Source of the DNA: a virus
DNA: 64,000 nt
IMG/VR virus record: IMGVR_UViG_3300005758_000578
Location: 48,049 to 112,048 of that record
Direction: 5' to 3' (one strand)
Below the pieces are notes generated by a model. That model was not told the origin of the DNA. It made no database searches and saw only the letters and a program-made list of their open reading frames with translations. Made by a program: the position numbers and the translations under genes. This document shows, piece by piece, positions 26,101 to 53,944 of the stretch. Position 1 is the stretch's first letter; every line of letters begins with the position of its first letter.

Positions 26101-27883
26101 TAGTACCACCACGAGTCTGTCTTATTTTAGGTAATTTCTTCTTATCTCTACCTAAGAAAGAATCATGATCTAAGAAATTGTACGGATAGTTTACGTACAA
26201 TCCGGTAATATTGCTATCTACAATATCATAAGATCTCATGTTGTTAATAAGACCCTTTGCAATAATAGATCTATTAGCTTCTCTTGATCCTCTTAAGATC
26301 TCATAACCAATAATACTTCTGATAGGATTACCTGTTGAATCTTTAGGAAACTCAATATTAGAGAACTCTACACCTAAAGAAATAATGTTATTATTAACCG
26401 GATTATAGTTAGGCATAATAATATCATCAGGAAACTTATGGTGTCTAATTTCTTGGCCACATAAGGTATCCCATACATCTGGTTTATTATCTGGATATTT
26501 TTCAGTAGACTGCCAATAAGCCATCTCACCTTTAAATACAATTGTACCACCATCATCAGTGGTTCCAGTTGCAGGTACTTTGGTAGCAGTATTGTTTACT
26601 TGCCAGTTTTGTTCTGGACCAAAGTTTACAATATGATCAGGGCCAGAGTTATTACTAAGTTCTCCGGGTTTTGATATACGTCCTGGAATATGATAGCTTG
26701 CAGATTTTGCACCTGTGTCATAAATCCAGCGTATAAAGAAACTATATACTTCATCTCTTAAAAATGTTGGTTTGTTTCCGCCTTTATAATAATAGTCAGC
26801 GGGATATTCTACACCTACCCAATTAGTGCTAATCTTATTAGCTAAGGGTTGGTAATTAAAATCTTCATAAGTGGTAGGAGCAATACGGATAAGGTATTCA
26901 TTTACATTATACATACCCTGTGATTTCTCATAAGCCGGGGTACGTAAAGGTATTTGCTCCAAAGGAACTGTAGGTAATGTAGGATCTACAGCATCTAATG
27001 ATATAGTACTAGTCTGAGTAGAATAGTAACCAATTCTTCTAGCTACAGCTTGTTGATTAACAAAACCAATAACTACTAACTCAAACTCATCATACTCTGT
27101 ATCTAAACCATTAATAAAAATATCTAATGACCCGTTTACATTATCATGTGTCCATAAAGCCTGTACGTTAGAAATAGCTAAGTAGTCAGATACTTTAACA
27201 CCATTAACTGAGTAAGCAATTGTAGCTTGGTATGATCCATTAAGTAAGGTACCTAAACCATTACCTTTCTTTACCTGAATACAAGGAGTCTTAGCATATG
27301 CTGCTAATCTTAATTTATCACAATCAATTACTCCAGTTGATACTTCATCTTTACAAGGTCCTGGAAGAACATCTGTTGTAAGATAAGGAACACCATCCCA
27401 ATTACCTACAGGATAAGGCCATGATTCTTCCTTACCAATATTCATAGTCCGGGATACATTGTATCCATGATCCCAGTATAAAGACCAAGTACAATCAGAG
27501 TTATACTTAGATACACCAATTACTGGATATTCTTTAAAGAACTTAAAGCATTGGTTTAAAGGATCATTGTGAATAGTATTATATGCACATGTTTCTTCAT
27601 GAAATAATCCTACTTCAGAAGCAAAATTATTAGAGGAATAAACAGCCCAATAACCGTTATTAATATATACAGTACCAATGATTGTATAAGGAGCTCTTGC
27701 ACAAAGTACATTACTAGGCTCATTACCTAATACACCAACATCTCCAGAAGGAGAGTTGTTTACTGCATTTCTAGCATGTGTCCAATAACCTTCACCTATA
27801 TAAGTATCACTTACGTCTTTAAGTAAGCCTTTGTTATATAGCTCGGTGTGTATTAAACTGGTTTTACCGTCCATTATCTCCAA
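23183..27883 (-). CDS. Tail stabilization/muzzle protein (1566 aa)
   Basis: N-terminal GLLKD...YWTHARN...LGNEPSN, FLRDEVYSFFI, IRHHKFPD and SFHDWHP segments typical of the crAss-like muzzle; position between ring and cargo genes. Confidence 0.75.
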   Translation of the reverse strand: MEIMDGKTSLIHTELYNKGLLKDVSDTYIGEGYWTHARNAVNNSPSGDVGVLGNEPSNVLCARAPYTIIGTVYINNGYWAVYSSNNFASEVGLFHEETCAYNTIHNDPLNQCFKFFKEYPVIGVSKYNSDCTWSLYWDHGYNVSRTMNIGKEESWPYPVGNWDGVPYLTTDVLPGPCKDEVSTGVIDCDKLRLAAYAKTPCIQVKKGNGLGTLLNGSYQATIAYSVNGVKVSDYLAISNVQALWTHDNVNGSLDIFINGLDTEYDEFELVVIGFVNQQAVARRIGYYSTQTSTISLDAVDPTLPTVPLEQIPLRTPAYEKSQGMYNVNEYLIRIAPTTYEDFNYQPLANKISTNWVGVEYPADYYYKGGNKPTFLRDEVYSFFIRWIYDTGAKSASYHIPGRISKPGELSNNSGPDHIVNFGPEQNWQVNNTATKVPATGTTDDGGTIVFKGEMAYWQSTEKYPDNKPDVWDTLCGQEIRHHKFPDDIIMPNYNPVNNNIISLGVEFSNIEFPKDSTGNPIRSIIGYEILRGSREANRSIIAKGLINNMRSYDIVDSNITGLYVNYPYNFLDHDSFLGRDKKKLPKIRQTRGGTMDDDKYHTGNSGAVDVQLFDGVKRDIFSFHSPETTFRNPFLSATELKVYGQVWGDVEGRFRPVDNHPKDKFITDTSAIIANLAGVALGVAAARAAVPITDFLIAAGITAAIPAIAGTATTAQPFTGAIAGLIGAMAQYAILFSYYWLASTQNLIEGIEAAGGKRQFAYQYVSHGFYKNFAASPVGNRRREIIKSLYIDPVIQDYDTTYRINNLFRASTVTVSLNSPIADPTVVDNTLFTIGQIARGENGRPLPSSYGVDNDNKPIKAKDIWKKPEDFVQSSTTSAHYAALKIKNDNQYGQLDNIRQVPIGCINLFPVISSKSTSAVIFGGDMYVNRYTEKSTFFYFSQWMQDMPDNTEWDYRLYNMLPYPRYWMDTTKYNAADLLGGIFGGDQALPNDFHHLDRRTISGAFMVRYAYMYLFNSGIRDFYVESEINLAYRDYGDDPGKRHYDFTTYTDYEEMFRTPYIKDTNYQKYDYALSISKHFSNFASWGNMQSRIYDPANVSCYTTYDKRVIYSLQQQFELSKDNWRQFLANNYKDFDSQVVSMRSVGKTGAIIMLNNNSPILFQGVETLDLNGGTKLSIGDGQLFNAQPLQNLVNSDPEFEYGSCQNRLSVINTPAGLFYMSQNQGKVFSYGQGLQDISKSGMKWWFSQYSPYALLVDFPNLDPNIIDNTIIGIGCQTTYDNINEIVFFCKRDFQLKPQYKGKVTYLYSNKFGHVDFPGYQFDLGDPTYFENASWTVSYDPKARAFISFHDWHPNLVMSSKTYYMTVKDNGIWKHNLVCDSFCNYYGVNYPFEVEYVQNQGQTVTTTRSVEYILECYRYSPNCLDYHHLLDENFDRAIIYNTEQISGDLRLNLSPKNDPYLINSYPLVNANNIDILFSKEEQKYRFNQFWDITNDRGEFTGTFTPMWATESNGYIRNINPTYVNYNKGATQRKKFRHYINKVLLKKIVSGSSKFLLKLSNNKLLASFR

Positions 27884-28740
27884 CTATTAAAATTATAACT
27901 TTTAAATTGATCGTAATATTTGCCATATTGAGCCTTACGGTTCATCTGCCACATCTTATACATCTCAGCAAAGTCTGGAGTATTTACTAATGACAAGGCA
28001 TTATTACGGGCTGCTCTTAATCTCTGTTCAATTAAATTAAGTTTCTGTACTACATCTTCCCCATTCATATACAAGTTCTCAAGCAATCTCTGTTTAAGAG
28101 CATATTCATAATACTCATTTACATATGGGTTATCTAATACCATCAAGTTACCCTCTTCATCTTCCATAGTACCTTCATAGTTGATGTATACTTTACCGTG
28201 GTCTAGATTTAGATAAATGTAACCATTCTTAAGTTGTCCTTTATACGGTGACTTCCAGGTAAGATTAGGACAGTCACAAGAAATAGTTTTAGAGTTATTA
28301 TCTAAAGAGATAACTGTACTAATCTCATATGTCCGGGTCTCATACTGTGTAGTCTGAATTACTTGTAATAAATCACCACACTGAGTCAAACAAGTATTAG
28401 GTTGACAAGTACAGGGATCATCACAATTTGGATTAAAGGGTACAATAGTATCCTCTCTATGCGTACCAGAAATAGCGGGCTGTGTAATGCTATATTCACC
28501 ACACAACATTGCATAGTTTAATACATAGAAATCATCAGGTAGTCTTACTTTACTATTGACAATATCAAGTACTGCTTCCTTAGTTTTATTAATCCTAAGA
28601 CCTAAATCATAATTAACTCTCTGAACAACTTTAATAAGTTGCTGAGGCTCTATCATATTCTCTAAAGCATACATAGAGAAATCAACACTTACATCTTCAA
28701 GTAATTGATTAAATGTACGATATTTTAATTCTGTAAGCAT
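27874..28740 (-). CDS. Tail tubular/ring protein
   Basis: 288 aa, VRLPDDF and G.VYINY.G...DEEG segments; immediately upstream of the muzzle gene. Confidence 0.65.
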   Translation of the reverse strand: MLTELKYRTFNQLLEDVSVDFSMYALENMIEPQQLIKVVQRVNYDLGLRINKTKEAVLDIVNSKVRLPDDFYVLNYAMLCGEYSITQPAISGTHREDTIVPFNPNCDDPCTCQPNTCLTQCGDLLQVIQTTQYETRTYEISTVISLDNNSKTISCDCPNLTWKSPYKGQLKNGYIYLNLDHGKVYINYEGTMEDEEGNLMVLDNPYVNEYYEYALKQRLLENLYMNGEDVVQKLNLIEQRLRAARNNALSLVNTPDFAEMYKMWQMNRKAQYGKYYDQFKSYNFNSWR

Positions 28741-29408
28741 TATCTATTTGGATTAATATTGTCATCACTAAGATCTGTAGGAATAGATAATCTAGATCCT
28801 AAATCTTTAATTGCCATTGCTTCAATTTCAGCTAATAAGAATTCAGGTACATTAATACCCAAATCCTGTTTCTTAGTACATGCATTAGCATCATTAGTTG
28901 CATCTTCTGTAAAAATTGCCTCTACCTTAATAGCATCCCAATCAAGATTAGGCATGTATAAATATCCATTCAAGTACCAAAAGTATTTAAACTTGTTATA
29001 CTTAAAGCCGGTTGTTTTAGTCATAGAGGTATATTGACCAGGTGTGGTTGCATATAACTCTTCAGATGCATCAATAGAGCTCACTGTGCGAATCAAAGGA
29101 CCCCAGTAACCCTCTAACATAGTAGGAAGTTTTTCTTTTGTTCTACGGATAGTGCAGCCGGATTTAATACCAGCACAACATGCCTCAATTTTATCTACTT
29201 CAATTAACTCTAAACAGTCTAGAGTTCTCCAGATAGAATTAAATTTCATTAGCTTATTCTGAGAATCTTGTCTTCTCATTAAAAGCTGTGAGTATTTTAC
29301 TACTACACTATAAACATATCTATCTGTCAGAAAAGCATCTTGCCTTACTGCTTTTACTTGATTCTTTACCCGTGATATTACGGTGCCAATAGTTATCATT
29401 TTTATCAA
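28740..29408 (-). CDS. Tail ring protein
   Basis: CLELIEVD...C...RTKEKLP...YLNGYLY pattern; synteny. Confidence 0.6.
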   Translation of the reverse strand: MIKMITIGTVISRVKNQVKAVRQDAFLTDRYVYSVVVKYSQLLMRRQDSQNKLMKFNSIWRTLDCLELIEVDKIEACCAGIKSGCTIRRTKEKLPTMLEGYWGPLIRTVSSIDASEELYATTPGQYTSMTKTTGFKYNKFKYFWYLNGYLYMPNLDWDAIKVEAIFTEDATNDANACTKKQDLGINVPEFLLAEIEAMAIKDLGSRLSIPTDLSDDNINPNR

Positions 29409-30025: not shown

Positions 30026-31234
30026 TTAAATACAGTTATAAACAAACTCTCCAATCTTACCGTTGTCATAATCATGAACTTCAATAATAGCAGCTCTTTT
30101 GCTACCAATAAATTTATTATGATAATGCCAGTAGTCAGTTTTAGATAAACTAGGTATGATTTTAATAGAAAAACCGGTTATCTCATCCTCTGTAATATAC
30201 TCCACAGTCTTCTTTTTGTGATAATGCCCGGTATATAAAGTTCTAAACTTAGTATTACCCCAAGATTCTGAGAACTCAGTAGCATATACTAATAAAGAGT
30301 TTTTAGTATTTACATCACCATGCTCAAATGCAAAGAAGTTATTATTAAATGTAAGTACTTTTCTTTCTGCATAATCAGAGTGCCATACAATATTTTCTTC
30401 CTGGATAGCTTTAGATAAAGCATGTACTAAATGATATGATGATAATCTATCATGATTACCCGGAATGTACATAATATGTAATGTCTCACATCTCTCCTTT
30501 AAAAAACGAATGCCCTGGTATAGGGCATCAAAGGCATCAGCATATACTTTATAAGCTTTATCAGAATTCTCTACAGGAGTACCTGATGTGGTTGTACCAT
30601 TAAACGTATCCATGTTTAATATATCACCACCTATCACGTACACTAGATCATCTATAAAATAATTATTACTTACACTTTCTGTAAGTTGTTCTAATGAAGC
30701 AAAGTATTGTTCTATGATATCATCATTACCATCTTTTCCAATATGCATATCTTGCATAGATAGTACACAGCTTACATACCGGTGTCTCTTTTGCTTCTTT
30801 ATAACTACCGGCTGATACTTAGGTTTAAAATTATCAATGATATCTTTTAAATAGTCCTCTTTAGTTTTTACAATCTTAGTTACTAAAGCTGATACTAACC
30901 ATTTATCATTCTTCTCTTTGTTCCAGTACTGAGATAATTTCCATTCTGTAGTATCTATACCCAAAATAGCTATGATCTCTTCAGGAGTTTTAGGATTCAC
31001 TGATACTAGTTTCTCTATTTTTCCGGTGCCTTTTTCTAAATCATAAGACTCAGAATTGATTCTTTCCGTATTGTTATCAGAGTTATATTTTAATTTTTTA
31101 GATTTAAATCCCAGAGACTTTTTAATCTTTAAATATTCATCTAATGTAATACCTAATCTTCTTGCACACTCAACGTTAGATAGCTTCCAAGTCGTGCTTT
31201 TAGCTACTCTATCTTTTAATTCTTGTGAGTACAT
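30026..31234 (-). CDS. Calcineurin-like metallophosphoesterase with N-terminal HTH
   Basis: Motifs DMH, GGD, GNHD, EHGD, GHYH; N-terminal ECARRLGIT helix-turn-helix. Confidence 0.85.
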   Translation of the reverse strand: MYSQELKDRVAKSTTWKLSNVECARRLGITLDEYLKIKKSLGFKSKKLKYNSDNNTERINSESYDLEKGTGKIEKLVSVNPKTPEEIIAILGIDTTEWKLSQYWNKEKNDKWLVSALVTKIVKTKEDYLKDIIDNFKPKYQPVVIKKQKRHRYVSCVLSMQDMHIGKDGNDDIIEQYFASLEQLTESVSNNYFIDDLVYVIGGDILNMDTFNGTTTSGTPVENSDKAYKVYADAFDALYQGIRFLKERCETLHIMYIPGNHDRLSSYHLVHALSKAIQEENIVWHSDYAERKVLTFNNNFFAFEHGDVNTKNSLLVYATEFSESWGNTKFRTLYTGHYHKKKTVEYITEDEITGFSIKIIPSLSKTDYWHYHNKFIGSKRAAIIEVHDYDNGKIGEFVYNCI

Positions 31235-31250
31235 GTAGTAATTGTTTTAT

Positions 31251-31279
31251 CAAATGTAATAAAAATAGTTTATAATCAA
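31251..31279 (-). promoter_or_regulatory. Bacteroidota-type sigma70 promoter
   Basis: TACATTTG (TAnnTTTG) at 31251-31258 and TTG 18 nt upstream, just before the phosphoesterase ATG. Confidence 0.5.
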
Positions 31280-31288
31280 GTTATTATA

Positions 31289-31317
31289 CAATAAACCCCG
31301 GCTTTTTACACCGGGGT
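31289..31317 (-). terminator. Intrinsic terminator
   Basis: ACCCCGG-TGTAAAAAG-CCGGGGT followed by TTATTG. Confidence 0.65.
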
Positions 31318-31360
31318 CTAAATCAGAGGGATAAACCAACAAACCCTCTTTGTACTTATA
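31289..31360 (-). ncRNA. Candidate ~70-nt small RNA (hairpin plus terminator)
   Basis: Late-promoter-like motif at 31361-31375, stem AGAGGG/CCCTCT with loop TTTGTTGGTTTAT, then terminator hairpin; no ORF. Confidence 0.4.
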
Positions 31361-31399
31361 TACAATAATAATATACTGCAGTTGGTTTAATTAAGCAAG

Positions 31400-32272
31400 C
31401 TATTTTTCTAAAGCTTTTATAATATCTTTTGCATCAAAGATATCAGCATCTACTACATATGGATATTCCATAGGATCACCAATAATATTATACTTATGGA
31501 GATAAGAATATTTTAAACTTGGTTTTCTAGTAGCTGGTTTAGCAACAACGTTTGTATGTAAATCATAACCAAAAACATTTGGATCATTAGCAATCCAACA
31601 AACTACTGAAGGTAAACCTAATGCCGCAGTAGCATGATTTGCAAAAGAATCAATTAATAAACGTTTGGTAGACAGCATTAACAATACACACAATGATCTA
31701 AATCCTTCATTGACAGTTACTGTATTATGTAAAGCCGGTTGATCTTCTCTACGGATATGACAGATTACATAATCTTTAGAGAAATGATCTACTACTTCTT
31801 GTGCAATTGGAATAGGTAGATCTCTGGCCCAAGAATGTTTAGTCTCTTGACCTACGGCACCACCATTAGTTTGAATAACCATAATAGGCTTATCAACTAT
31901 GTACTTGTTAGTAAAGTAACTAATCTCTGAATTAGTTAAAAATAATTGTGGAAATTCTTCCTGGTAAGTATAGTTAAACATCTTTGACCAGGTAACAATT
32001 AAGTGCTCCTCACCTTTAATATGAGCTGCCTCTAAATAAGGGTTGTGGGCATGTACCTTAACTTCTTGATTCTCAATGTAATCTTCATAGAAGTATGTCT
32101 GTTGTCCTAAAATAAAAACCCTATCTACAATAGGGTTATTTAAAAACACTTCAGGAAAACCAGTAATGACAATTAATTTAGATTCTGGATGTGCTTTTTT
32201 AATTACCTCACATACAGCCGTGGCCATTATAGACTTACCTAGACCACCATCAATTTGAAAAATAACATTCAT
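31400..32272 (-). CDS. GT9-like (heptosyltransferase-like) glycosyltransferase
   Basis: N-terminal GGLGK..MATAV; C-terminal IDSFANHATAALGLPSVVCW, matching GT9 DSG..H.AAA. Confidence 0.75.
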   Translation of the reverse strand: MNVIFQIDGGLGKSIMATAVCEVIKKAHPESKLIVITGFPEVFLNNPIVDRVFILGQQTYFYEDYIENQEVKVHAHNPYLEAAHIKGEEHLIVTWSKMFNYTYQEEFPQLFLTNSEISYFTNKYIVDKPIMVIQTNGGAVGQETKHSWARDLPIPIAQEVVDHFSKDYVICHIRREDQPALHNTVTVNEGFRSLCVLLMLSTKRLLIDSFANHATAALGLPSVVCWIANDPNVFGYDLHTNVVAKPATRKPSLKYSYLHKYNIIGDPMEYPYVVDADIFDAKDIIKALEK

Positions 32273-32330
32273 AGATTAAATATATTTAAGCAAATATAAG
32301 TAATCTATGAATGTTATATAGATTTTTTTA

Positions 32331-33737
32331 TTATGGTACAATAGTCAATACACCAGCATTGCTCCAAACCGCACCGCTTGGAAGACCTACACTTGATGTA
32401 GGAATATTAGTTAATACTAAACGGTTAGCGTGAAAAGCACAAGCTAATCTAGAAGTAACAGCACAACCTACAACAGAACTATAGTCATGACTTGCCACGT
32501 TTAATAAACCTCCTAAAATATATGTATGAAGTCCACAAGCAGTATTTTGACCACCTGCAAATACACCAGACCAACATCCACTAGCTACGTTGCAACAACC
32601 ACCACCAATTGCACTTACCCAACCAGTAACACAGTTTAAGAATCCAGATCCTACAAAACCATTATTGCAACTTGCAAGGTTACGACCTCCACCACCAATA
32701 AATGTATATGGTCCAGTTGCCACGTTCAAGTAACCACCACCAATAAATGATGGGTCACCACCTGCTGTATTGCTATCACCACCCATAATTGAAGAACGGG
32801 TATTAGAAGTCATATTACATTGACCGCCTCCAATAAAATTTTGGAGTGAACATGTTCTATTATAATATCCACCACCAATAAAACTATTACTACCACCTGA
32901 AATATTATTACCACCACCACCAATAAAACTTTGAGATCCATTTGTAACATTATACTGACCACCACCAACAAATGAAAGAGATGCTCCAGGATTTACAGTA
33001 TTATTATATCCACCAACAATTGTAGAAAATCCAGAATGTACATAATTAGTACTACCTCCTAAAATAGCAGAACATGCTTCATTCATATAATTGTTTGTAC
33101 CATTACCAATAAATGAATATCTAGGTTGATTTCCTGTACAAACAACAAGGTTATTATTACCTCCAACAACAGCATTTCCAAAAGTGTTAATTTGTATAGT
33201 ATTAGCACTCCCACCACCAATAAAACCATAAGGACTACAAATTCTATTACCACCACCACTAATAATTACAGAATAAGTACTTGCAGCTATACTATTATTA
33301 CAACCACCAATAATACTATTAATATCGTCAACGCCACTTGTTCCAGATATAGTATTATTACTACCACCACCAATATTAGAATATTTTACAGATACATTAT
33401 TAGTAAATCCACCTGAAATATTAGAATATGGTCCAGATACTGCATTTACAGTACCTCCACTAATAGTAGAATAGCAACCAGTAGCATTATTTAATTCTCC
33501 AGATAATACTCCAGAATAAGCACCACTAGCACAGTTACTGGCAGCATCTCTTAAAGTAGATTTTAATCCGGTACCTTCTACAATAATAGATGATCCACTA
33601 GGAGGTGTAGGTCCTGGGGTAAGTGTATTAACATAATCCACTAAGGTATTAAGGTGACCCATTCTAGCCACATCAAAATCCTGACTATTTCTAATAAAGG
33701 GATCAGGTGATTTCGGTATAAATCTTTCAATTGTCAT
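32331..33737 (-). CDS. Fibre/decoration protein with GG..N beta-helix repeats
   Basis: ~15-aa repeats S(F)IGGG..N; C-terminal IPTS..GLPSGAVW; N-terminus shared with 50459..50884. Confidence 0.65.
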   Translation of the reverse strand: MTIERFIPKSPDPFIRNSQDFDVARMGHLNTLVDYVNTLTPGPTPPSGSSIIVEGTGLKSTLRDAASNCASGAYSGVLSGELNNATGCYSTISGGTVNAVSGPYSNISGGFTNNVSVKYSNIGGGSNNTISGTSGVDDINSIIGGCNNSIAASTYSVIISGGGNRICSPYGFIGGGSANTIQINTFGNAVVGGNNNLVVCTGNQPRYSFIGNGTNNYMNEACSAILGGSTNYVHSGFSTIVGGYNNTVNPGASLSFVGGGQYNVTNGSQSFIGGGGNNISGGSNSFIGGGYYNRTCSLQNFIGGGQCNMTSNTRSSIMGGDSNTAGGDPSFIGGGYLNVATGPYTFIGGGGRNLASCNNGFVGSGFLNCVTGWVSAIGGGCCNVASGCWSGVFAGGQNTACGLHTYILGGLLNVASHDYSSVVGCAVTSRLACAFHANRLVLTNIPTSSVGLPSGAVWSNAGVLTIVP

Positions 33738-33770
33738 TTTTATAATTATTAAATTTTATCAAATATTTTA

Positions 33771-33968
33771 TTAATTAGGTGCGGCACGTTCTGTAAGAAC
33801 TTCCTCAATTTCACCAAATTCCACATCAGGTTGACTATTAATAAACTGTACAGCTAATACAATATTAGTTGTTTCTACTAAACCATAACATCCTTTAGTC
33901 ATAGCAATGTTTAATGCTTCGCTGATAATTTGTTTAGCTAACTGTGGGGTCATTTTGTTGTTGTTCAT
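33771..33968 (-). CDS. Small hypothetical protein (possible fibre chaperone)
   Basis: 65-aa ORF between fibre genes, with A-rich leader. Confidence 0.5.
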   Translation of the reverse strand: MNNNKMTPQLAKQIISEALNIAMTKGCYGLVETTNIVLAVQFINSQPDVEFGEIEEVLTERAAPN

Positions 33969-33999
33969 AATTTATATATTTATTGGTTTTTAATATTAA

Positions 34000-34335
34000 T
34001 TATTCAGGAGCTACCCAGGGCAATGGTGTATTTTGAGGAACTACTGGAGGATTCTTTTTAGCATTAATAGCACCTTCAATACATTTCTCAATAGAAATGA
34101 TACCGTTCTCTCCTAATTCCTGTTTAATCCAACTTACTACAATATCATTTGTAAGATCTGCATAAGGAATAAAAGGAGTGGTTTTTTCAGTAGAAAACCG
34201 TGACATATTACTTAGAGAATATTCATATTCACCATCAGTACCTGTTACTTTGTAGTTAGCAACTACAACATAATCTTGCTCATCACCTACAGGTTTAGTA
34301 TAAAGTGATGTAATTGTCCAATTATAAGTTATCAT
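34000..34335 (-). CDS. Fibre-associated protein (MITYNWTI...FIPYADLT...PLPW type)
   Basis: Likely start at 34335 rather than 34383; pattern commonly found next to phage fibre genes. Confidence 0.6.
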   Translation of the reverse strand: MITYNWTITSLYTKPVGDEQDYVVVANYKVTGTDGEYEYSLSNMSRFSTEKTTPFIPYADLTNDIVVSWIKQELGENGIISIEKCIEGAINAKKNPPVVPQNTPLPWVAPE

Positions 34336-34357
34336 ATTATTATATTTAATTTCAAAT

Positions 34358-36196
34358 TTATGCCAATAATATCTTCTGGGCAACCCCGTTGATAGTGACG
34401 TTCCATACTTGTGTAGATGTATTGACTTCAGTTGCTACAGACCCAGCAGGATATGTTAAACTTCCAACAACCATTTCATTTGTAGTAGTTGCAGTTGCTC
34501 CATGACCAATTACGATAGAACCTCCATTATTACCATTACTTGCAGAATTCCCGATAACAATACAATCATCACCTATTATATCAATACTCATCGCTTGATG
34601 ACCTATTGCTATAGTGTTATTTATCAAACTAATATTATTATCGTATAAAGCACGAAATCCCAATGCTGTATTATTTAATGACGTACCACTTTGATACATA
34701 GATTCACTACCAACAGCGGTGTTTTGCGTTCCTGATGATATATTGAACATACAATTGTATCCAATAGCAGTGTTGTCATCAGCATCTGAAAAAGTTAAAG
34801 CGTATTGACCCACAGCCGTATTGTAGTTTCCTATCACGTTGCCTGATAAACTCGCATGACCCAACGCAGTATTTCCACCACCTGCTATATTAGAATACAT
34901 AGAATAACTACCAACAGCAACTTGTTGATTTTGCGTATTATAGTACATAGATTGGATACCAATAGCAACATTTTCTGTTGTATCTATTTGTTGATTTAGG
35001 GCTTCAAAACCTATAGCCACGTTATTGGTTGAAATTTGGCTATTTAACATAGCGTCCTTACCGATACTTACATTGTTCTGTCCGCTTGTATTGAAAGTCA
35101 TTGAATTTTTCCCAATAGCCACATTAGAAGCACCTGTAGAGTTAGATGTTAAGGCAGATGCTCCTATAGCAACGTTTGAAATACCCGATAGATTATTGTT
35201 TAACGAATCTGTACCCACAGCCACGTTTGAACTCCCTGTTGTATTAGCACTTAAAGCCCTATATCCAACAGCCGTGTTACTTTGCCCAGTAGTATTAGTT
35301 GATAAGGCTAACGAGCCAACAGCCGTATTAAAACTCACTGTATTAAATCGCAATGCTTGATGTCCTACAGCCACGTTTGAGCCTCCAGTAGTATTAGCCG
35401 ATAAAGCACCTGTACCTATTGCTACGTTGAGACTGCCAGTAGTATTTAATTGTAGTGATTGATATCCAAGTGAAATATTGTTTGAACCAGATGTGGTAGA
35501 TTGTAAAGCATATGTTCCGAGAGCCGTATTAAAATTACCTGTTGTAACTGCACTTAATGCTAAACGACCAATGGAAACAGCCCCTGCTCCTCCTTTTGCT
35601 CCTGAACCTATAATAATAGATTCTGAACCTCCAATTGCATTTGCCCCGATAATGACCGCATCAACCACAGTTGCTGAGCCAACATTTGCAAGATATCCAA
35701 TAGCAGTATTATTAGTACCCGTAGTTGTGGTTAGTAGAGACTGATATCCAATCCCAGTATTCCCACTAGCAGTTGTGTTGTTTCGTAATGCTTGATATCC
35801 AATAGCAGTTGTACCAGTTCCAGTTGTATTGCTCAATCCTGCTTGATGCCCAACTCCAGTATTATTAGATGCAGTATTAAATCCTAAAGCAGAATAACCT
35901 ATTGCAGTTATGCCCACTCCTACAGTATTTGCATATCCTGCTTCATATCCAATGGTAGTGTTCCAAGTTCCAGTTGTATTACTAGCAAGAGCTGATTTAC
36001 CAAATGCTGTATTAGTTATAACATTACCACCACCATAGTTTGTAACACTATTAGTAGAAAGTCTTAATGGACTAACTGTATTATTTTGATCCACTACATT
36101 TCTTAATGTAGCATCTAATGGTAAACCATTTTGAATTTGTAATATACCAGTATTTAATGCTGATCCTAGTGAAAAAAACTTAGCGTATTTTGCCAT
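34358..36196 (-). CDS. Fibre protein with YadA-like N(T/V)A(I/V)G 14-aa beta-roll repeats
   Basis: Many NTAIG..AL repeats across 612 aa. Confidence 0.75.
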   Translation of the reverse strand: MAKYAKFFSLGSALNTGILQIQNGLPLDATLRNVVDQNNTVSPLRLSTNSVTNYGGGNVITNTAFGKSALASNTTGTWNTTIGYEAGYANTVGVGITAIGYSALGFNTASNNTGVGHQAGLSNTTGTGTTAIGYQALRNNTTASGNTGIGYQSLLTTTTGTNNTAIGYLANVGSATVVDAVIIGANAIGGSESIIIGSGAKGGAGAVSIGRLALSAVTTGNFNTALGTYALQSTTSGSNNISLGYQSLQLNTTGSLNVAIGTGALSANTTGGSNVAVGHQALRFNTVSFNTAVGSLALSTNTTGQSNTAVGYRALSANTTGSSNVAVGTDSLNNNLSGISNVAIGASALTSNSTGASNVAIGKNSMTFNTSGQNNVSIGKDAMLNSQISTNNVAIGFEALNQQIDTTENVAIGIQSMYYNTQNQQVAVGSYSMYSNIAGGGNTALGHASLSGNVIGNYNTAVGQYALTFSDADDNTAIGYNCMFNISSGTQNTAVGSESMYQSGTSLNNTALGFRALYDNNISLINNTIAIGHQAMSIDIIGDDCIVIGNSASNGNNGGSIVIGHGATATTTNEMVVGSLTYPAGSVATEVNTSTQVWNVTINGVAQKILLA

Positions 36197-40285: not shown

Positions 40286-40428
40286 TCTATTCTATTTTTA
40301 AGTTGTTCTTCATAACTGGTTATGCAGCTATTGCATACCCTTGTTCCATCACTAGCAGATTTAATCTGACATCCGCAAGATAATTGTGTGTTACATCTTG
40401 GACATTTCATATTACCTTTTACTCCCAT
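40234..40428 (-). CDS. Small zinc-ribbon-like protein
   Basis: CPRC...CGC...CNSC. Confidence 0.5.
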   Translation of the reverse strand: MGVKGNMKCPRCNTQLSCGCQIKSASDGTRVCNSCITSYEEQLKNRIEWKHAATVTTVDPNQQT

Positions 40429-40434
40429 TTTGGT

Positions 40435-40983
40435 TTAATTACAATATGTGCAGGAAAGTTTATCAAGTTGTGTAAGAGCATAATTATAGATTGCCATACC
40501 TTGATCAGCATTGTGGCAAAATTCTACTTTAGCTTTTGCACCATCCAGCATAGTACGTAATAACCTCAACTTTGTAAGCTTCTCTTTCTCTGGGGCTAAA
40601 GGCTCACAACCAGATAGATTAACATTACAGAAGATGTTATAGTACTTATTCATTGCTGCTGTAATACGAAGATAATTATATTCTACAAATACTTTATCAT
40701 TTGGTGCTACACTATAACGAATTACATAAATACCATCAGGTAATGCTACAGGAACAGTATCACAGTTAGTGCTTTGAATACCTAACATGCATGCGGTAAC
40801 TAAAGTTTCCCCTCCTTCTACCATTGTTACAGTAACAGGATCTGTATATCCGGGAACTAAGATTTGTAATGTAGGACATGCTACAGCCAAATCAGCACTA
40901 TAAATACTAGTATCCACAACCCTCAATACATTTAAATTGAGAGTATCTGGAATATCTAAACTAAGGATGTGTTTGTTTGCCAT
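40435..40983 (-). CDS. Putative tail hub/structural protein
   Basis: LPDGIYVIRY motif; position in the crAss-like tail block. Confidence 0.45.
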   Translation of the reverse strand: MANKHILSLDIPDTLNLNVLRVVDTSIYSADLAVACPTLQILVPGYTDPVTVTMVEGGETLVTACMLGIQSTNCDTVPVALPDGIYVIRYSVAPNDKVFVEYNYLRITAAMNKYYNIFCNVNLSGCEPLAPEKEKLTKLRLLRTMLDGAKAKVEFCHNADQGMAIYNYALTQLDKLSCTYCN

Positions 40984-43831: not shown

Positions 43832-44842
43832 TTATTTCCAGTGTTGTTCTACTTTATTAATAATTGCATCAGCTACATCTTGATTAAGAGGGTTCTTCAA
43901 GAACTCTACAATATCACTAGATGTTTTACCTAACATTGTACTGCTAGCTAAATGATAGATGAATCCATCAGATTTAGTAACAATGTACTTGTAAGTAGCA
44001 GCATCTTTTACAATAGCCCGCAATTTTAAAGTGGTAAGATCATTCTCAGCAACAGCCAAGAATCTTTCTGCACACTTCTTCTTATCTCTATCTACACTTT
44101 CTCCGTTAATAAATTTATCCATGTTATCATAGATAATATCATTAGGTGTAGATTTCTTATACTGTGCACTATCAATATCAATGATCTTAGCAACATAGAA
44201 CAACTTAGTTTGATTCTTATCAAACATCTTCTGTAATTCAGAAAGAGCTTTGTTCCTAGTTTTCTTAGTCTCTGTTTTGATAGTAACAGTTTCTTCCATC
44301 TTATCTAAAAAGAACTTAGGAGGTTTAGGCATTTTTCTAGCTTCATCATATGACTTAGCTACAATACTAAATCCACCTGCTTCAATTGCATAAAGCTTAA
44401 TAAGATCATAAGGATCTGTAGCTGGATCTAAATAAAGAGGATCATTACCAACTCTAATTACAATCTTACTCCAGAACTCATCATTATCCGGCTTTAACAA
44501 TTTAATCTTATTCCAGAACTCAGGATCTTCAGGATTAACAACATTAGCTGCTAATTCTTTTTCTAGTTGTGAAACAACTTTTCTAATTTCTTTAATCTTA
44601 CTCTCTCTTTCATCATCTGGTAAGAATTTTACTTCAGGAGCAAATTCATTTAATCCGGTTAAATAACGCTTAATCCCGTTAATCTCCAGACATGCTAACT
44701 GTTCTTCATGGAATACACCATCAAAAAGAGAGAGACCATAAGACTCTAATCCCATGTTACTCACATTAGGATCAAAGTAAGATTTAATACTCAAGGTACC
44801 TTTTTTGTTTTGAGGATACCTGTCTACAATTGTTACACTCAT
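43832..44842 (-). CDS. Conserved crAss-like protein downstream of MCP (gene-75-like)
   Basis: YLTGL...FW...LYLD...P.DLIK pattern; synteny. Confidence 0.55.
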   Translation of the reverse strand: MSVTIVDRYPQNKKGTLSIKSYFDPNVSNMGLESYGLSLFDGVFHEEQLACLEINGIKRYLTGLNEFAPEVKFLPDDERESKIKEIRKVVSQLEKELAANVVNPEDPEFWNKIKLLKPDNDEFWSKIVIRVGNDPLYLDPATDPYDLIKLYAIEAGGFSIVAKSYDEARKMPKPPKFFLDKMEETVTIKTETKKTRNKALSELQKMFDKNQTKLFYVAKIIDIDSAQYKKSTPNDIIYDNMDKFINGESVDRDKKKCAERFLAVAENDLTTLKLRAIVKDAATYKYIVTKSDGFIYHLASSTMLGKTSSDIVEFLKNPLNQDVADAIINKVEQHWK

Positions 44843-44992
44843 TGGTTTATATATTATTTGGTTGGTTTAATATTCAAATATATTGGAACCTAGTAAGAGT
44901 TACAAGCTCTATTCTCAGATGTATCACTAGGTTATACAGTATTAATTTACTATATTTTTATCAGATTTAATAATTTATTAAATTTTTAATGT

Positions 44993-47203
44993 TTAAACTA
45001 GTCCTCCGTCTGTAATTACCCAACCTAAATCATTAATTAATCCATCTCTACTAGACTCACCAGCTAATGTATATTGTACATCTGTTTCAAAAGTAGCAGA
45101 TGGAAAATTACTATCAGTCATATAACTAGCATACCAGTTATTATAAATGTTATCTAAATTAGCAGGACTAAGTGATGTATTATAAATAAAATTATAAGCA
45201 TTTAAATTTCCACTCCAAGCATATCGTCCAGGAACAAGATTACTTAAATCTTGATTAAATGCCATAGTAGTAGTATCTGAATAAAACATTTCAGAAATAT
45301 CTTCAACATAAGGTAATGTCCAGTTATTTAATGGTTGATTGAATGATATAGCGTTATAAAACATGTTATACATATAAGCAGCATTAGATACATCCCAAGT
45401 ATTTAATGGTTGGTTAAACGATGTACAATTAGCAAACATACCTGAATAATCACTTAAATTATAAGGAGTCCAATTATTTATGTCTGGACTTCCTCCATTA
45501 TTAAATGATATAGCTCCATAAAACATATATGATGGTTCTATATTAAAATTATTATAAATATTAGTAACATTAGATATATCCCAACTTCCTATATTTTGGT
45601 TAAATGAAGATGCTGCCATAAACATTTTAGCCATGTTTGTAACAGCACTTGTATCCCATAAATTTAAAGGTTGGTTGAATGCCGATGCACCATTAAACAT
45701 TTCTCGCATTGTAGTAACAACTAATGTATTCCAAGTATTAATATTTTGATTAAATGCTGCTGCATTACGAAAAGTACTTTCCATATTCCATACTTTACTT
45801 ACATTCCAGTTATCTAATGGTTGGTTAAATACTAAAGCTCCATCAAATGTATATAATAAATTAACTAATGCTGTAGTAGTCCAAGTATTAATGTTTTGGT
45901 TAAATGCTGTTGCGTTCTGAAACATACCAGCAAAAGTTATTACTTTAGATACATTCCAATTACCAATTGGTTGATTAAAAGATGTAGTATCTTTAAATAC
46001 AGCCTGCATATCAGTAACATTTGAAGTATCCCAAGTATTTAATGGTTGGTTAAATAATGTTGCCCCAGAAAACATTTGAAGCATAGAACTTATTTTACTA
46101 GTATTCCAGTTACTGATATCCTGATTAAATGCTTTTGCATTTCTAAACATACTAGTCATATACTGTACATTACTAGTATTCCAATTGTTTAATGGTTGAT
46201 TAAACACAGTACAACCATCAAACATAGAAGATAAGTTGGTATTAAGACTAGTATTCCAAGAGTTTAAGGGTTGATTAAATAATTGACAGTTAACAAACAT
46301 CTGACTCATATTGGTAACTTTAGATGTATTCCAGTTGTCTAATGGTTGGTTAAATTGAAGACATCCACTAAACATCTGTCCCATGAAAGTAACAGATGAA
46401 GTATCCCAATTATTTATATCTGAACTACCTCCGTTGTTAAAAGATCTATTAAATTGGAACATACCACCCATATTAGTTACTTTAGAAGTATCCCATCCTC
46501 CAATATTCTGATTAAATACCATATATGGTGTAGTATTTGGGAATTTTCTAAACATATTATTCATACTAGTAACTTTAGATGTATTCCACATACCAATTGG
46601 TTGATTAAATGATGTCGCAGCCTGAAACATACCATTCATATTAGTTACATTACCTGTATCCCAATTATCTAAAGGTTGGTTAAATGCAGCAGCTGCATTA
46701 AATAAACCAGACATGCTGGTTACTTTAGATACATCCCAGTGATTAATATTAGAGTTAAATACTGTACATCCATTAAAACCACTACTTATATCTGTAGTAC
46801 TTATAATAGGTGCATCTATAGCAGATATTTGTAAATTATTGCAACCTCTAAAAAATGAATTTATACTTAGTATAAAACTATTTCCAAACTGAGAAATATT
46901 TGTAATCTTACTTCTATCACCAGTGTTACCTTGATACCAACCTTTACATAATCCTAAAATAACAATATTATATATCCCGGTTGATGAATAAGTATGAGTA
47001 GTAGCAGGATCATTCCAAGTAGTTATAACACTACTAGTACCATCGCCCCAATCTACAGTCATATTATATGTACCCTCAAAAAGTAATGGTAATTTATATT
47101 GTAGATTAGTAGTACTTCCTGCACTAATATTAGCAGTATTAACTGTGAATCTGAAACCTTGAGGTACAGAAACCCCTTCTAAAAAATTTAATGGTGTTAA
47201 CAT
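44993..47203 (-). CDS. PKD + DUF285/BspA-like repeat protein
   Basis: VDWGDG..THTY PKD domain; ~25-aa repeats FNQPL.NW.TS.VT.M..MF. Confidence 0.85.
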   Translation of the reverse strand: MLTPLNFLEGVSVPQGFRFTVNTANISAGSTTNLQYKLPLLFEGTYNMTVDWGDGTSSVITTWNDPATTHTYSSTGIYNIVILGLCKGWYQGNTGDRSKITNISQFGNSFILSINSFFRGCNNLQISAIDAPIISTTDISSGFNGCTVFNSNINHWDVSKVTSMSGLFNAAAAFNQPLDNWDTGNVTNMNGMFQAATSFNQPIGMWNTSKVTSMNNMFRKFPNTTPYMVFNQNIGGWDTSKVTNMGGMFQFNRSFNNGGSSDINNWDTSSVTFMGQMFSGCLQFNQPLDNWNTSKVTNMSQMFVNCQLFNQPLNSWNTSLNTNLSSMFDGCTVFNQPLNNWNTSNVQYMTSMFRNAKAFNQDISNWNTSKISSMLQMFSGATLFNQPLNTWDTSNVTDMQAVFKDTTSFNQPIGNWNVSKVITFAGMFQNATAFNQNINTWTTTALVNLLYTFDGALVFNQPLDNWNVSKVWNMESTFRNAAAFNQNINTWNTLVVTTMREMFNGASAFNQPLNLWDTSAVTNMAKMFMAASSFNQNIGSWDISNVTNIYNNFNIEPSYMFYGAISFNNGGSPDINNWTPYNLSDYSGMFANCTSFNQPLNTWDVSNAAYMYNMFYNAISFNQPLNNWTLPYVEDISEMFYSDTTTMAFNQDLSNLVPGRYAWSGNLNAYNFIYNTSLSPANLDNIYNNWYASYMTDSNFPSATFETDVQYTLAGESSRDGLINDLGWVITDGGLV

Positions 47204-47222: not shown

Positions 47223-49892
47223 TTAAGCTAGACCTCCGTCTGTAATAGTCCAGCCAAATGTATTAACTAATTCATCACGAGAAGTTTGAGCAGCAACTGT
47301 ATATTTTGCAGTACCAAAACTAACTTCTAAATTATATGGTAGATTACCTCCATTATTTGCCCAACCATTAAGCAATGCATCATAAGTTGTGGGAGGATAT
47401 GTAACTGGAGTTTTATCACCCATAAATCCTGTTGCTGAATACGGAGAAAACATATTATAAAATATCCAATTTTGCAAAGATTGATTAAATGCAGTACAAC
47501 CATAAAACATATCATTCATTGATGGAATGTCAAACACTGCTGAATCATTAATATCAGGACTTTCACCATTATTAAAAATAGTACATCCATAAAATAAACC
47601 ATCAACAAGACCAGATGAAAAATTAATTTGTCCAACATTCTGATTAAAAGAAGTACATCCCTTAAACATATACTGCGCATCACCATAAATCTCAAGAGGA
47701 TTCAAAGGTTGTCCACCATTATTAAAGGATATACAACCATCAAACATATAATTAGCAGGACTACCTAATAATCCAGATGCATTAATAATACCATTTATAT
47801 TTTGATTAAATGATACACATCCTGCAAACATTGAACTAGTATCCTTACCAGGATAACTAAATATATCATTTAAAGGCATTGGTTGTCCGCCATTATTGAA
47901 TGCTGTTGCATTAAGAAACATAGAATTGGTATCAACACAATAAAGGGCATTCCAAGTACTTATATCTTGATTAAAAGAAGTAGCTCCAGCAAACATTCTA
48001 GATGTTGCACTAAGACTACTAGGTAAAATCCAGTTACCTATTGGTTGATTGAATGATGTAGCATTTTCAAACATACTAGAAAATGTTGTAGGACCACCAT
48101 ATCCCGAAAAATTCCAATTATTAATATTTGGACTATTACCATTATTAAAAGATGTTGCATTAAGAAACATTCCTTCTATAGAAAATCCATATGTAGAATG
48201 ACCAGCAAATTTCCAACTTTCTATATTTTGATTAAATGCTGTTGCATCTTTAAACATTTCTTGAGCATTCCATAACGGAGTAATAGAAAATAAATTATTT
48301 ATGGGTTGATTAAATACCGCTGCTCTTTCAAACATTAAATCAGCTATTACAGGACTTGTACCAGTTAATTGCCAATTATTTATATCTGGACTTCCACCAT
48401 TATTAAATAATTCAGCTACACTAAACATTTTAGATAAACTAGTTAAATTTGTACTAAATAAAAAGCTACCAATATTCTGATTAAATTTCCTAGCAATACT
48501 AAACATAAAACTGGCATCTTTAATTCTAATAGTCCAAGTTAAAGGTTGTCCTCCATTATTAAACTTATCACACCAATAAAACATAAAACTACAATCAACC
48601 CCTTGAGTTGGTAATTGTGGAATAAATGTCCAACTACTTAAATTCTGATCAAATTCTCTACAATTATAAAACAACCTACTCATGTTAGTAATAGTACTAC
48701 CAATAGTCCAATTATTTAATGTATTATTAAAAATAAATGAGCTTTCAAACATACCAGTCATATCTGTAATAGCAGTTAAATTCCAGTTATTAATTGGGGC
48801 ATTAACCTCACAATATTTAAACATACCAGCTGTAGTAGTTACTTTAGATACATTCCAACCAGTAAGTGATTGATTAAATATCATAAATTTTCCAGAACCA
48901 TAATATGAATTATAGAACATATTACTTAAATTAGTAACATTACTTGTATTCCAGTTATTAATTGGTTGGTTAAATGATACTGCACCAGCAAACATGTATG
49001 ACATAGTGGTAACACTACTAGTGTTCCAAGAATTTAAAGGCTTATTAAAAGAATCTGCAGAAGCAAACATACTCAACATAGTAGTTACTTTAGATACATC
49101 CCAGTTTCCAATAGGTTGGTTAAATAATAATGCACCTCTAAACATAGTAGACATATTTATTACTTTACCAGTATTCCAGTTATTAATATTAGCACTACCT
49201 CCATTATTAAATTTACAATATTGAAACATTCCACTCATAGTAGTTACGTTAGATGTATTCCAATTACTAATATCTTGATTAAAATCATTACTAGTTGATA
49301 CACTAAATCCGGCAAACATTGAACTCATATTAGTTACTTTAGATACATTCCAACTTCCAATTGGTTGATTAAATCTGTATGCCTGTAGAAACATACCAGA
49401 CATATTAGTAACACCGCTAACATCCCATTTATTAGCCTTTGGAAATGTAGCATATATACATGCTCTAAACATGTTTGTAGCATTAGCTGTTGCAATATCT
49501 AATTTATCTGAAGCAACAGTATACATATTATTACAACCATTAAAAGCAGCATCAGTAGTAATTTTTAGACATCCCCATCTAGAAACTAGTATAATTTTAC
49601 TTCTGTCACCGGTATTGTTTTGTCTCCAACCATCACAAACACCAGTAATTTCAACTTCATATATACCCACTGCAGGATATGTATGAGTAGTTGCAACATC
49701 ATTCCAAGTTGTTATAGTGCTAGTAGTACCGTCTCCCCAATCTACAAGCATGTTATAAACACCAGTGCTTATTAATGGTAACTTGTATTGAATATTTGTA
49801 CTTGATCCGGAACTAACGTTAGCCGTATTAACTTTAAATTGAAAACTCTGTTTTACAGAATTACCTTTTAGAAAATTTAATGGTATTAACAT
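47223..49892 (-). CDS. PKD + DUF285/BspA-like repeat protein (paralog)
   Basis: Same architecture; shared ML.PLNFL start and GW.ITDGGL end. Confidence 0.85.
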   Translation of the reverse strand: MLIPLNFLKGNSVKQSFQFKVNTANVSSGSSTNIQYKLPLISTGVYNMLVDWGDGTTSTITTWNDVATTHTYPAVGIYEVEITGVCDGWRQNNTGDRSKIILVSRWGCLKITTDAAFNGCNNMYTVASDKLDIATANATNMFRACIYATFPKANKWDVSGVTNMSGMFLQAYRFNQPIGSWNVSKVTNMSSMFAGFSVSTSNDFNQDISNWNTSNVTTMSGMFQYCKFNNGGSANINNWNTGKVINMSTMFRGALLFNQPIGNWDVSKVTTMLSMFASADSFNKPLNSWNTSSVTTMSYMFAGAVSFNQPINNWNTSNVTNLSNMFYNSYYGSGKFMIFNQSLTGWNVSKVTTTAGMFKYCEVNAPINNWNLTAITDMTGMFESSFIFNNTLNNWTIGSTITNMSRLFYNCREFDQNLSSWTFIPQLPTQGVDCSFMFYWCDKFNNGGQPLTWTIRIKDASFMFSIARKFNQNIGSFLFSTNLTSLSKMFSVAELFNNGGSPDINNWQLTGTSPVIADLMFERAAVFNQPINNLFSITPLWNAQEMFKDATAFNQNIESWKFAGHSTYGFSIEGMFLNATSFNNGNSPNINNWNFSGYGGPTTFSSMFENATSFNQPIGNWILPSSLSATSRMFAGATSFNQDISTWNALYCVDTNSMFLNATAFNNGGQPMPLNDIFSYPGKDTSSMFAGCVSFNQNINGIINASGLLGSPANYMFDGCISFNNGGQPLNPLEIYGDAQYMFKGCTSFNQNVGQINFSSGLVDGLFYGCTIFNNGESPDINDSAVFDIPSMNDMFYGCTAFNQSLQNWIFYNMFSPYSATGFMGDKTPVTYPPTTYDALLNGWANNGGNLPYNLEVSFGTAKYTVAAQTSRDELVNTFGWTITDGGLA

Positions 49893-50884: not shown

Positions 50885-50957
50885 TTTATGTATATTTTAA
50901 ATTTTTTATAATTAGAACCTGGTGGAAGTTACGAGCCTCCACCAGGTTGAACTGTTA

Positions 50958-53836: not shown

Positions 53837-53944
53837 ATAGTTGGTTGTTTTTAGTTTGTACTGTACATAAAGAATATAATATATTACTTTTTATAAACTT
53901 TAAAAATTTGTTCTTAAAGCTGTATTTCTTGTAATATAAAGCTA

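Follow-up and report, generated by a model that had tools for sequence, protein, structure and literature searches.

Among phages, P1/P7 and P22 encode c4 antisense RNA and sar RNA, respectively, which act on the phages' own messages, and the RegA protein of T4 tunes translation through a short sequence shared by many phage initiation regions. In Firmicutes, the small RNAs (sRNAs) RsaE/RoxS pair through C-rich loops with Shine-Dalgarno (SD) sequences, and other bacterial sRNAs, including CpxQ, SroC and DapZ as well as OppZ/CarZ of Vibrio, are terminator-ended products of 3' untranslated regions (3' UTRs) whose processing and activity have been shown experimentally. GcvB was reportedly described by Sharma and colleagues in 2007 as directing a G/U-rich seed at C/A-rich leader elements. 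Passages of PMC3879156 describe this enterobacterial sRNA as silencing, through its G/U-rich seed, C/A-rich (ACA) translation-enhancing elements upstream of start codons. Here we analyse a 64,000-nucleotide stretch of viral DNA (the window; positions 48049-112048, the right part, of the 112,048-bp virus record IMGVR_UViG_3300005758_000578) that carries, on its minus strand, an RNA hairpin with a G/U-rich loop just before an intrinsic terminator. We favour, with a probability of roughly 0.55, the reading that this element would be a terminator-ended, base-pairing anti-leader RNA acting on the phage's own messages.

The original prediction for this locus had proposed a small RNA whose loop is antisense to AAACCAA-type motifs in the leaders of late genes, and overall our results partly support it. 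Almost nothing is known of RNA-level regulation in crAss-like phages, the group to which this virus belongs, and little more of how messages are selected for translation in Bacteroidota, where SD pairing is not used.

A conserved, covarying hairpin before a terminator

The element lies in a 165-nt spacer (31235-31399) that separates a 290-aa open reading frame (ORF) from a 402-aa nuclease gene and contains no ORF of at least 60 aa. The hairpin (31325-31349, minus strand) pairs AGAGGG (31349-31344) with CCCUCU (31330-31325) in a 6-bp stem, and its 13-nt loop, UUUGUUGGUUUAU (31331-31343), stays unpaired in both the minimum free energy and the centroid structures computed with RNAfold. Eight nucleotides further on, a terminator-like hairpin (31286-31319, minus strand) closes a 9-nt loop with CCCCGG (31316-31311) and CCGGGG (31301-31296) and is followed by UUUAUUGUAU; RNAfold predicts an 11-bp stem, and sequence and fold together give the GC-rich stem and U-tract of an intrinsic terminator. 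A loop of more than 8 nt kept this terminator out of a simple consensus scan. The spacer folds better than its shuffles (z = -2.9), and no overlap or competing pairing between the hairpin and terminator stems is visible in the fold. Both structures named in the original prediction are therefore present at the proposed place on the minus strand.

Relatives were gathered through the nuclease protein, which gave 80 IMG/VR loci (44-94% amino acid identity), 79 of them usable. A hairpin with the loop TTGTTGGTT (at most one mismatch) and a terminator was found in 78 of these 79, in nearly all loci 87-158 nt upstream of the nuclease gene, and in every relative the loop hairpin is succeeded, 4-12 nt on, by a GC-rich terminator hairpin whose tail is richer in U. 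In the loop, the UUGGU columns never vary, and conservation reaches 90% or more in the G and U columns on either side. The stems differ wholly between groups (AGAGGG, GAAGGAU, GUAGAG, GGAGG, GUCAGG, GUCGGAG, GUUACG, AUCAGG and others), yet they pair. Of 60 distinct sequences, 57 have a contiguous helix of at least 5 bp closing the loop, compared with about 20% of shuffled flanks; this independent stem scan matters because a covariance alignment is itself fitted to its model.

Our covariance model was hand-seeded from ten in-register sequences, and the 52 matches aligned with it yielded 41 distinct rows. In these rows 98.5% of 206 stem cells are paired, with at most three cells unpaired, and changes on both sides of the pair, that is, compensatory ones, occur in five of the six stem pairs. 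None of 500 shuffles reached the real value on four covariation measures, and two of 500 did so on a fifth; sliding the partner strand as a control lowered pairing to 13-52%. An alignment by MAFFT followed by RNAalifold did not recover the stem, because stems of unequal length fall out of register in that alignment. The model matches this genome at 31323-31351 (22.4 bits), its sole match in the whole 112 kb, and each of the six genomes searched with it (this phage and five others) holds one strong copy. Present in this phage and in considerably more than a hundred relatives, the hairpin is a conserved, covarying RNA structure, and the search for covariation in related phages, which had been suggested as a check, bears out both the stem and the loop.

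Thirteen cells are G-U pairs on the gene-sense strand; read from the opposite strand, they would be A-C mismatches. As these cells fit the gene-sense strand only, and the U-tract of the terminator lies on the same strand, we conclude that the minus strand is the functional one. This agrees with the strand first assumed, and the G-U pairs disfavour the alternative that had been offered with it, a plus-strand transcript serving as a decoy for an RNA-binding protein.

No family of Rfam 15, C4 included, matched the window at gathering thresholds, and for the spacer alone the best scores were at most 22 bits against thresholds of 37-186 (E at least 0.3). The element is a new conserved phage RNA motif outside any curated family. 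A pseudoknot between the loop and A-rich spacer sequence, suggested by the alignment, was rejected because the complementary spacer is lacking in this phage.

Start-anchored leader motif and candidate targets

Our pool of 312 non-redundant leaders, each spanning -30 to -1, drew on this genome and on loci found through the nuclease and family-B DNA polymerase (PolB) genes; loci picked by the motif itself were excluded, and expectations came from a first-order Markov model of the leaders. AACCAA was observed 43 times (8.3 expected), AAACCAA 32 times (3.5 expected), ACCAAC 22 times (2.9 expected) and AACCAAC 19 times (1.3 expected; z = 15.8). These A/C words, with z values of 12-16, are the most over-represented in the pooled leaders and rank above the promoter box itself, TAnnTTTG, which is the consensus of the Bacteroidota -7 box. 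The proposal that AAACCAA exceeds its compositional expectation in leaders thus holds in the pool. The enrichment is clear only after pooling across the clade: among this genome's own 118 leaders, the count for AACCAA (9) is the highest of any A4C2 word but does not clearly exceed those of other A/C words (7-8). Over the window as a whole AAACCAA occurs 32 times against 13.9 expected, a raw count partly inflated by two large DUF285-repeat proteins (44993-47203 and 47223-49892, minus strand; Pfam E = 8e-172 for the first), whose FNQPL...W repeats produce TTTAACCAACCA within their genes.

Most motif starts fall between -25 and -6 from the ATG, peaking at -15 to -6, and the bin from -15 to -1 holds 40 of them; for A4C2 permutations free of overlap with the motif, the figure is 0-14. 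The gap between motif and ATG is mostly 0-6 nt, whereas that between the -7 box and the motif varies from 4 to 22 nt. Thus, the motif is tied to the start codon, like a ribosome-binding element, and not to the promoter box. It also co-occurs with the hairpin: AACCAA is found 68 times at -25 to -1 in ten hairpin-bearing genomes (about 26 expected) and once (3.3 expected) in phages FpV4, phi14:2 and crAss001, in which no convincing copy of the hairpin was found. Additionally, AACCAA showed no enrichment in about 200 leaders from three Bacteroidota samples of metagenome-assembled genomes (MAGs), which are not known to represent the host. The idea that the element shuts off host messages was rejected on the same comparison, in which these samples, not known to be the host, show no enrichment.

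The conserved loop UGUUGGUUUU is complementary at every position to the leader consensus AAAACCAACA, and the most enriched leader word among all 4096 6-mers is the exact complement of the invariant loop core. The complementarity originally noticed between the loop and the AAACCAA-type motif is thereby confirmed, and the loop core GUUGGUU(U) is the complement of the top start-anchored word. When the loop UUUGUUGGUUU was paired with 936 translation initiation regions (TIRs) of eight whole genomes, 31 duplexes reached -9 kcal/mol or lower, compared with 9.4 +/- 4.5 for 150 permuted loops; the only permutations to match the real count were shifts that keep UGUUGGUU. AACCAAC occurs 15 times in the start regions of these genomes, against about 2.6 for the average permutation. 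By computation, then, the loop is an accessible, conserved seed with complementary initiation-region sites beyond chance. The duplex excess is clear in G000, G003, G005, G009 and G010 and weak in G002, G004 and G007.

All four leader sites cited in the original prediction are present, each on the minus strand. The leader (44840-44872) of a 336-aa late gene (43832-44842) contains the copies TAAACCAACC and ATAAACCA-ATG, reads TTAAACCAACCAAATAATATATAAACCA-ATG at 44842, and forms the best TIR duplex in the window (-11.4 kcal/mol); orthologues of this gene, of about 338 aa, carry the motif in their leaders in seven of eight genomes, usually as two tandem copies. The leader (53834-53850) of a 409-aa gene (52607-53836) contains AACAACCAACTAT-ATG (AAAAACAACCAACTAT-ATG at 53836; duplex of -8.8 kcal/mol), and its orthologues of about 410 aa, which lie between the portal and major capsid genes, have the motif in seven of eight genomes. 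The third site precedes a 65-aa ORF (leader 33966-33992, ATG at 33968; AAAAACCAATAAATATATAAATT-ATG, -11.0 kcal/mol), and the fourth (40426-40437) reads TAAACCAAA-ATG at the start of a small Cys-rich, zinc-ribbon-like ORF (40286-40428), which is missing from the 90-aa ORF list because it is shorter than 90 aa. Similar small Cys-rich ORFs with the motif are found in G005 (22440), G007 (4470) and G010 (64690). As to the suggestion that the targets are assembly genes, the two main ones are indeed conserved late genes, but the sites are few, fall on both arms of the genome and are not confined to assembly genes. In addition, the portal gene is separated from the 409-aa late gene by a gene resembling GIY-YIG/NUMOD homing endonucleases (53988-54704, minus strand).

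The strongest site in the genome is outside the window, in the PolB leader, where a 12-nt perfect complement of the loop, ATAAACCAACAA (genome positions 27791-27802; -13.8 kcal/mol), stands immediately ahead of a terminator-like hairpin; 13 nt separate the end of that hairpin from the PolB ATG. With the start codon so close behind this hairpin, PolB must be either read through it or controlled by it. At the syntenic PolB site, the G007 genome, whose PolB is 52% identical, matches its own loop with a perfect complement of 14 nt, and G010 has a 13-nt perfect complement of its own loop directly before an ATG. In Cellulophaga phage phi4:1, whose hairpin has the variant loop UUUUUGGUUUUU, a leader contains the 11-nt match AAAACCAAAAA.

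The hairpin in the PolB leader (GGGGGA-UGUAAAAG-UCCCCC plus a U-run; genome 27774-27846, L081:7774-7846, in the left arm) is of interest in its own right. A similar hairpin occurs right before the PolB start in many relatives, and its loop UGUAAAAG resembles that of the terminator beside the element, UGUAAAAAG. In many relatives (L097-L149) GGGG(A/G)ACAGCTTAACTGAA is conserved 20-60 nt upstream of PolB; it is not present in this genome.

One further copy of the target motif, UAAACCAAC (31381-31389, minus strand), lies 31 nt upstream of the hairpin itself and would form a duplex of -11.2 kcal/mol with the loop. By this modelling it could pair with the loop in cis. The copy is partly kept in the close relatives L003-L006 (as AAACCATC) and absent in L001.

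The proposed anti-leader RNA and its alternatives

We propose that a single-copy module of stem-loop and intrinsic terminator would close a hypervariable, tail-fibre-like operon, and that it would be either the 3' end of that RNA or a processed, short and stable fragment of about 60-75 nt, protected by the terminator hairpin. The G/U-rich loop (core GUUGGUUU) would be presented as an open seed that pairs with the A/C-rich AAACCAAC, 0-6 nt upstream of the start codons of a few genes. The most consistent targets would be the ~338-aa late gene, the ~410-aa late gene beside the capsid gene and the small Cys-rich ORF; in this phage the 12-nt perfect site in the PolB leader may be a target as well. 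Such pairing would mask the ribosome-loading region on messages lacking an SD sequence. Passages of PMC6847099 and PMC13000457 describe upstream adenines as a feature of Bacteroidia start sites, and Bacteroidia ribosomes as making no SD pairing and relying on those adenines and on open structure. Covering the leader should thus lower initiation, and lower translation is the most likely effect, although an activating or stabilising role is also possible. That the RNA accumulates and pairs in vivo, and the sign of its effect, are matters we infer.

Where such an RNA would begin was part of the original prediction, which read ATATTATTATTGTAT (31361-31375, minus strand) as a late-promoter motif. 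This assignment did not survive comparison with the rest of the window, in which 17 matches with at most three mismatches were found against 20.1 expected; the motif is not recurrent. In loci L010-L031 about 7 nt separate the upstream gene's stop codon from the hairpin, so in many relatives the hairpin falls within the 3' UTR of that gene. Given a promoter motif that does not recur and a stop codon so near, the RNA is more likely a 3'-UTR end, possibly processed, than the product of a gene under a promoter of its own. In Leptolyngbya phage Lbo-JY46, the hairpin is flanked by two terminators, an arrangement that would fit a separate unit.

The position of the hairpin also suits control of transcription in cis, in which the hairpin, free or paired with a leader, would alter read-through of the adjacent terminator by the polymerase. 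It stands at a fixed place just before that terminator, at the entry to a conserved gene block of about 47 kb, and read-through would reach the nuclease, the ring proteins, cargo proteins and the virion RNA polymerase of that block. The PolB leader offers a parallel, with its complementary 12-mer directly before a terminator-like hairpin 13 nt from the ATG. A weak additional hint comes from public sequencing runs: the region was found in two, with 5-6% of its words, in both cases as contigs of relatives, and one of these contigs, from an RNA library, bridges the terminator. However, a -7 box of the TAnnTTTG type, TACATTTG (31251-31258, minus strand), lies after the terminator and 16 nt before the nuclease ATG, so the downstream block has its own promoter; the stems of hairpin and terminator neither overlap nor compete; and no factor for such control is known. 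We regard cis control as quite improbable.

Another account separates the two halves of the pair. The hairpin would be a protein-binding or RNA-end element, such as a 3' stabiliser, a processing site or a termination or antitermination signal, the leader motif would be an independent translational enhancer, and their complementarity would have no function. It would explain why the hairpin is always found 4-12 nt before a terminator at an operon end, and why Lbo-JY46 keeps the hairpin without the leader motif, and it fits the failure to find compensatory change between loop and leaders in the G005 and phi4:1 comparisons. A-rich, unstructured leaders would also be plausible enhancers by themselves, given the upstream adenines of Bacteroidia start sites described in parts of PMC6847099 and PMC13000457. 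It is harder to reconcile with the top leader word among the 4096 6-mers being an exact complement of the invariant loop core, with permuted G/U loops matching leaders less well, and with a motif seen only in hairpin-bearing genomes. The perfect complements of 12-14 nt in leaders, which extend into genome-specific loop flanks, point the same way, and no alternative pairing with the terminator is visible. We hold this account to be unlikely, though it is the likeliest of the alternatives.

Several observations weigh against the anti-leader RNA that we favour. Leaders from homologous loci are not fully independent samples. At the position following AACCAA, phi4:1 and the core clade show no significant difference, and for a G-to-A loop variant in G005 a matching change in the leaders was not found. 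Lbo-JY46 has the hairpin and a terminator, yet AACCAA occurs there 3 times against 3.6 expected and there is no duplex excess; G002, G004 and G007 likewise show weak or no motif enrichment, with few sites in G007. Strong sites number only 2-6 per genome and are spread over both arms. The pairing is A-U rich, at -9 to -14 kcal/mol, and we know of no chaperone for it. Finally, the bridging contig mentioned above, a 438-nt metatranscriptome contig from a relative of about 90% identity, covers 31068-31399 straight through hairpin and terminator; this would fit read-through or DNA carry-over, and contigs cannot reveal RNA ends. Motif-bearing genes are also not clustered in the operon that the hairpin terminates (6 of 64 against 45 of 874, p = 0.15).

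A bolder version of the anti-leader RNA would be a start-site code private to the clade: AAACCAAC would occupy the SD position in phages of hosts that ignore SD sequences and be read by a single phage RNA, so that the hairpin would act as master switch, or as positive adaptor, for head-assembly and replication genes. We consider this improbable. If true, it would mean that a crAss-like phage makes an RNA counterpart of T4 RegA.

Genomic setting and parallels in known systems

The hairpin marks a border between variable and conserved genes. Comparing eight complete or near-complete genomes, we found that the genes upstream of the hairpin have no homologues in the other genomes and come after a conserved gene of the 506-aa type; these variable genes look like tail-fibre or receptor-binding cassettes. 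The last of them here is the 290-aa ORF (31400-32272, minus strand), without homologues in the seven other genomes. Downstream, the genes for the nuclease, a 193-aa protein, Ring 2 and Ring 1 are conserved; the nuclease (30026-31234, minus strand; 402 aa) is Mre11/SbcD-like, with a GNHD motif and a match to phrog_704 (E = 2e-46). In G009 and G010 the hairpin is kept at the same border although the nuclease gene, which is optional in the clade, is absent. The hypervariable stretch directly upstream of the hairpin measures 3-8 kb, spanning 31400-36196 (minus strand) in the window and the matching blocks of G002-G010, and includes a 468-aa protein with beta-roll-like repeats; its genes are probably receptor-binding cassettes.

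Two cultured phages carry the element. In Lbo-JY46 it has the stem AUAUAAA/UUUAUAU and the loop UUUGUUGGUUG, followed by a terminator, at the same border. The phi4:1 variant, with the stem AUAGU/ACUAU and its terminator, also marks this border: it lies on the minus strand of NC_021788.1 near 50,940-51,030, between the tail-fibre gene gp046 and the Ring-2 homologue gp045.

This placement invites a reading at the level of DNA, with a single-stranded or cruciform hairpin that would be a signal for replication or recombination, or a conserved anchor for the swapping of tail-fibre cassettes. The hairpin does mark the exact border of hypervariable and conserved blocks, and an invariant loop on a covarying stem is also typical of hairpin origins. 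Against this, the element has strand-specific G-T pairs and is invariably accompanied by a terminator on that strand; conservation across the clade extends to only about 11 nt, which is too short for homologous exchange; and the leader motif would be left unexplained. A hairpin at the target site of a diversity-generating retroelement (DGR) was rejected as well, because the 112-kb genome has no match to the reverse transcriptase family RVT_1. A role as a DNA element is, in our view, very improbable.

The virus itself has the two-armed layout of a replication and a structural half. Plus-strand replication genes, including PolB, fill the left arm of the record, and minus-strand structural genes together with very large virion proteins the right arm; every gene in the window is on the minus strand. 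Pfam matches include CrAss_Ring_1 and CrAss_Ring_2 (27874-29408), a P22-type portal, an SU10-type adaptor and DUF285 repeat proteins. The capsid protein shares 28% identity with that of Lbo-JY46 and is more distant from those of Cellulophaga phages phi4:1/phi17:2 and gut crAss-like phages, and a DNA search of phages found no relatives at the nucleotide level. Of 117 genes, 23 have a TAnnTTTG box in the 120 nt upstream, and the cultured relatives with a Ring-2 homologue infect Flavobacterium or Cellulophaga, the exceptions being Lbo-JY46 and one gut phage without a stated host. Given the boxes before many genes and these hosts, the source is an environmental crAss-like phage, most likely one of a Bacteroidota host.

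Contigs of the clade (L241-L258; capsids 65-89% identical) have been binned into MAGs of Fluviibacter, Micavibrio, Clostridium, Campylobacteraceae, Rickettsiales, Patescibacteria and Chitinophagaceae. Such unrelated placements most likely reflect mis-binning of low-GC phage DNA, and with contigs spread over unrelated phyla no host can be assigned from MAGs. Lbo-JY46 (PP438436.1, L240) has a cyanobacterial recorded host, yet it has Bacteroidota-type -7 boxes, and cTTTGt is its top leader word. Its gene order is shared with the crAss-like clade studied here, and its recorded host may deserve a second look.

A start-proximal motif and a single hairpin loop that are mutually complementary form a concrete, mutable pair for testing, and their occurrence in the cultured phages phi4:1, with its variant loop, and Lbo-JY46 makes bench work possible. 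If the anti-leader RNA is real, it would represent a new family of phage regulatory RNA and provide a handle on initiation without SD sequences.

Set beside the systems with which we began, the element would share features with each. Like c4 and sar, it would be a short, structured phage RNA with an exposed loop complementary to ribosome-binding regions of the phage's own messages. The c4 RNA, however, serves immunity in phages that are temperate, carries two loop elements, is released through cleavage by RNase P and acts on a single operon, whereas here one loop would serve several dispersed targets in a crAss-like genome of virulent type, and the Rfam C4 family does not match. As with RegA, one phage product would read a sequence shared by initiation regions; RegA is a protein, whereas the reader here would be RNA. 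RsaE/RoxS likewise present a hairpin-loop motif complementary to a ribosome-binding motif shared by multiple targets, but their target is the universal SD sequence, and here it would be an A/C-rich motif private to the phages. With the 3'-UTR-derived sRNAs the element would have in common the use of a message's 3' end as a regulator, with a seed upstream of the operon's intrinsic terminator and no need for a separate promoter; it differs in that the seed lies in a hairpin loop and that expression and processing of the phage RNA are predicted.

GcvB would be the nearest functional parallel, by analogy. In both cases a G/U-rich, single-stranded seed would act on A/C-rich elements at or just upstream of the ribosome-binding region of several messages, and the elements may in themselves promote translation. 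GcvB, an Hfq-dependent RNA of about 200 nt, is encoded on the chromosome of bacteria that use SD sequences and has its own promoter. The phage element, in contrast, is one phage-encoded hairpin loop for hosts that do not use SD sequences, with no homology to GcvB in sequence or structure and no Rfam match.

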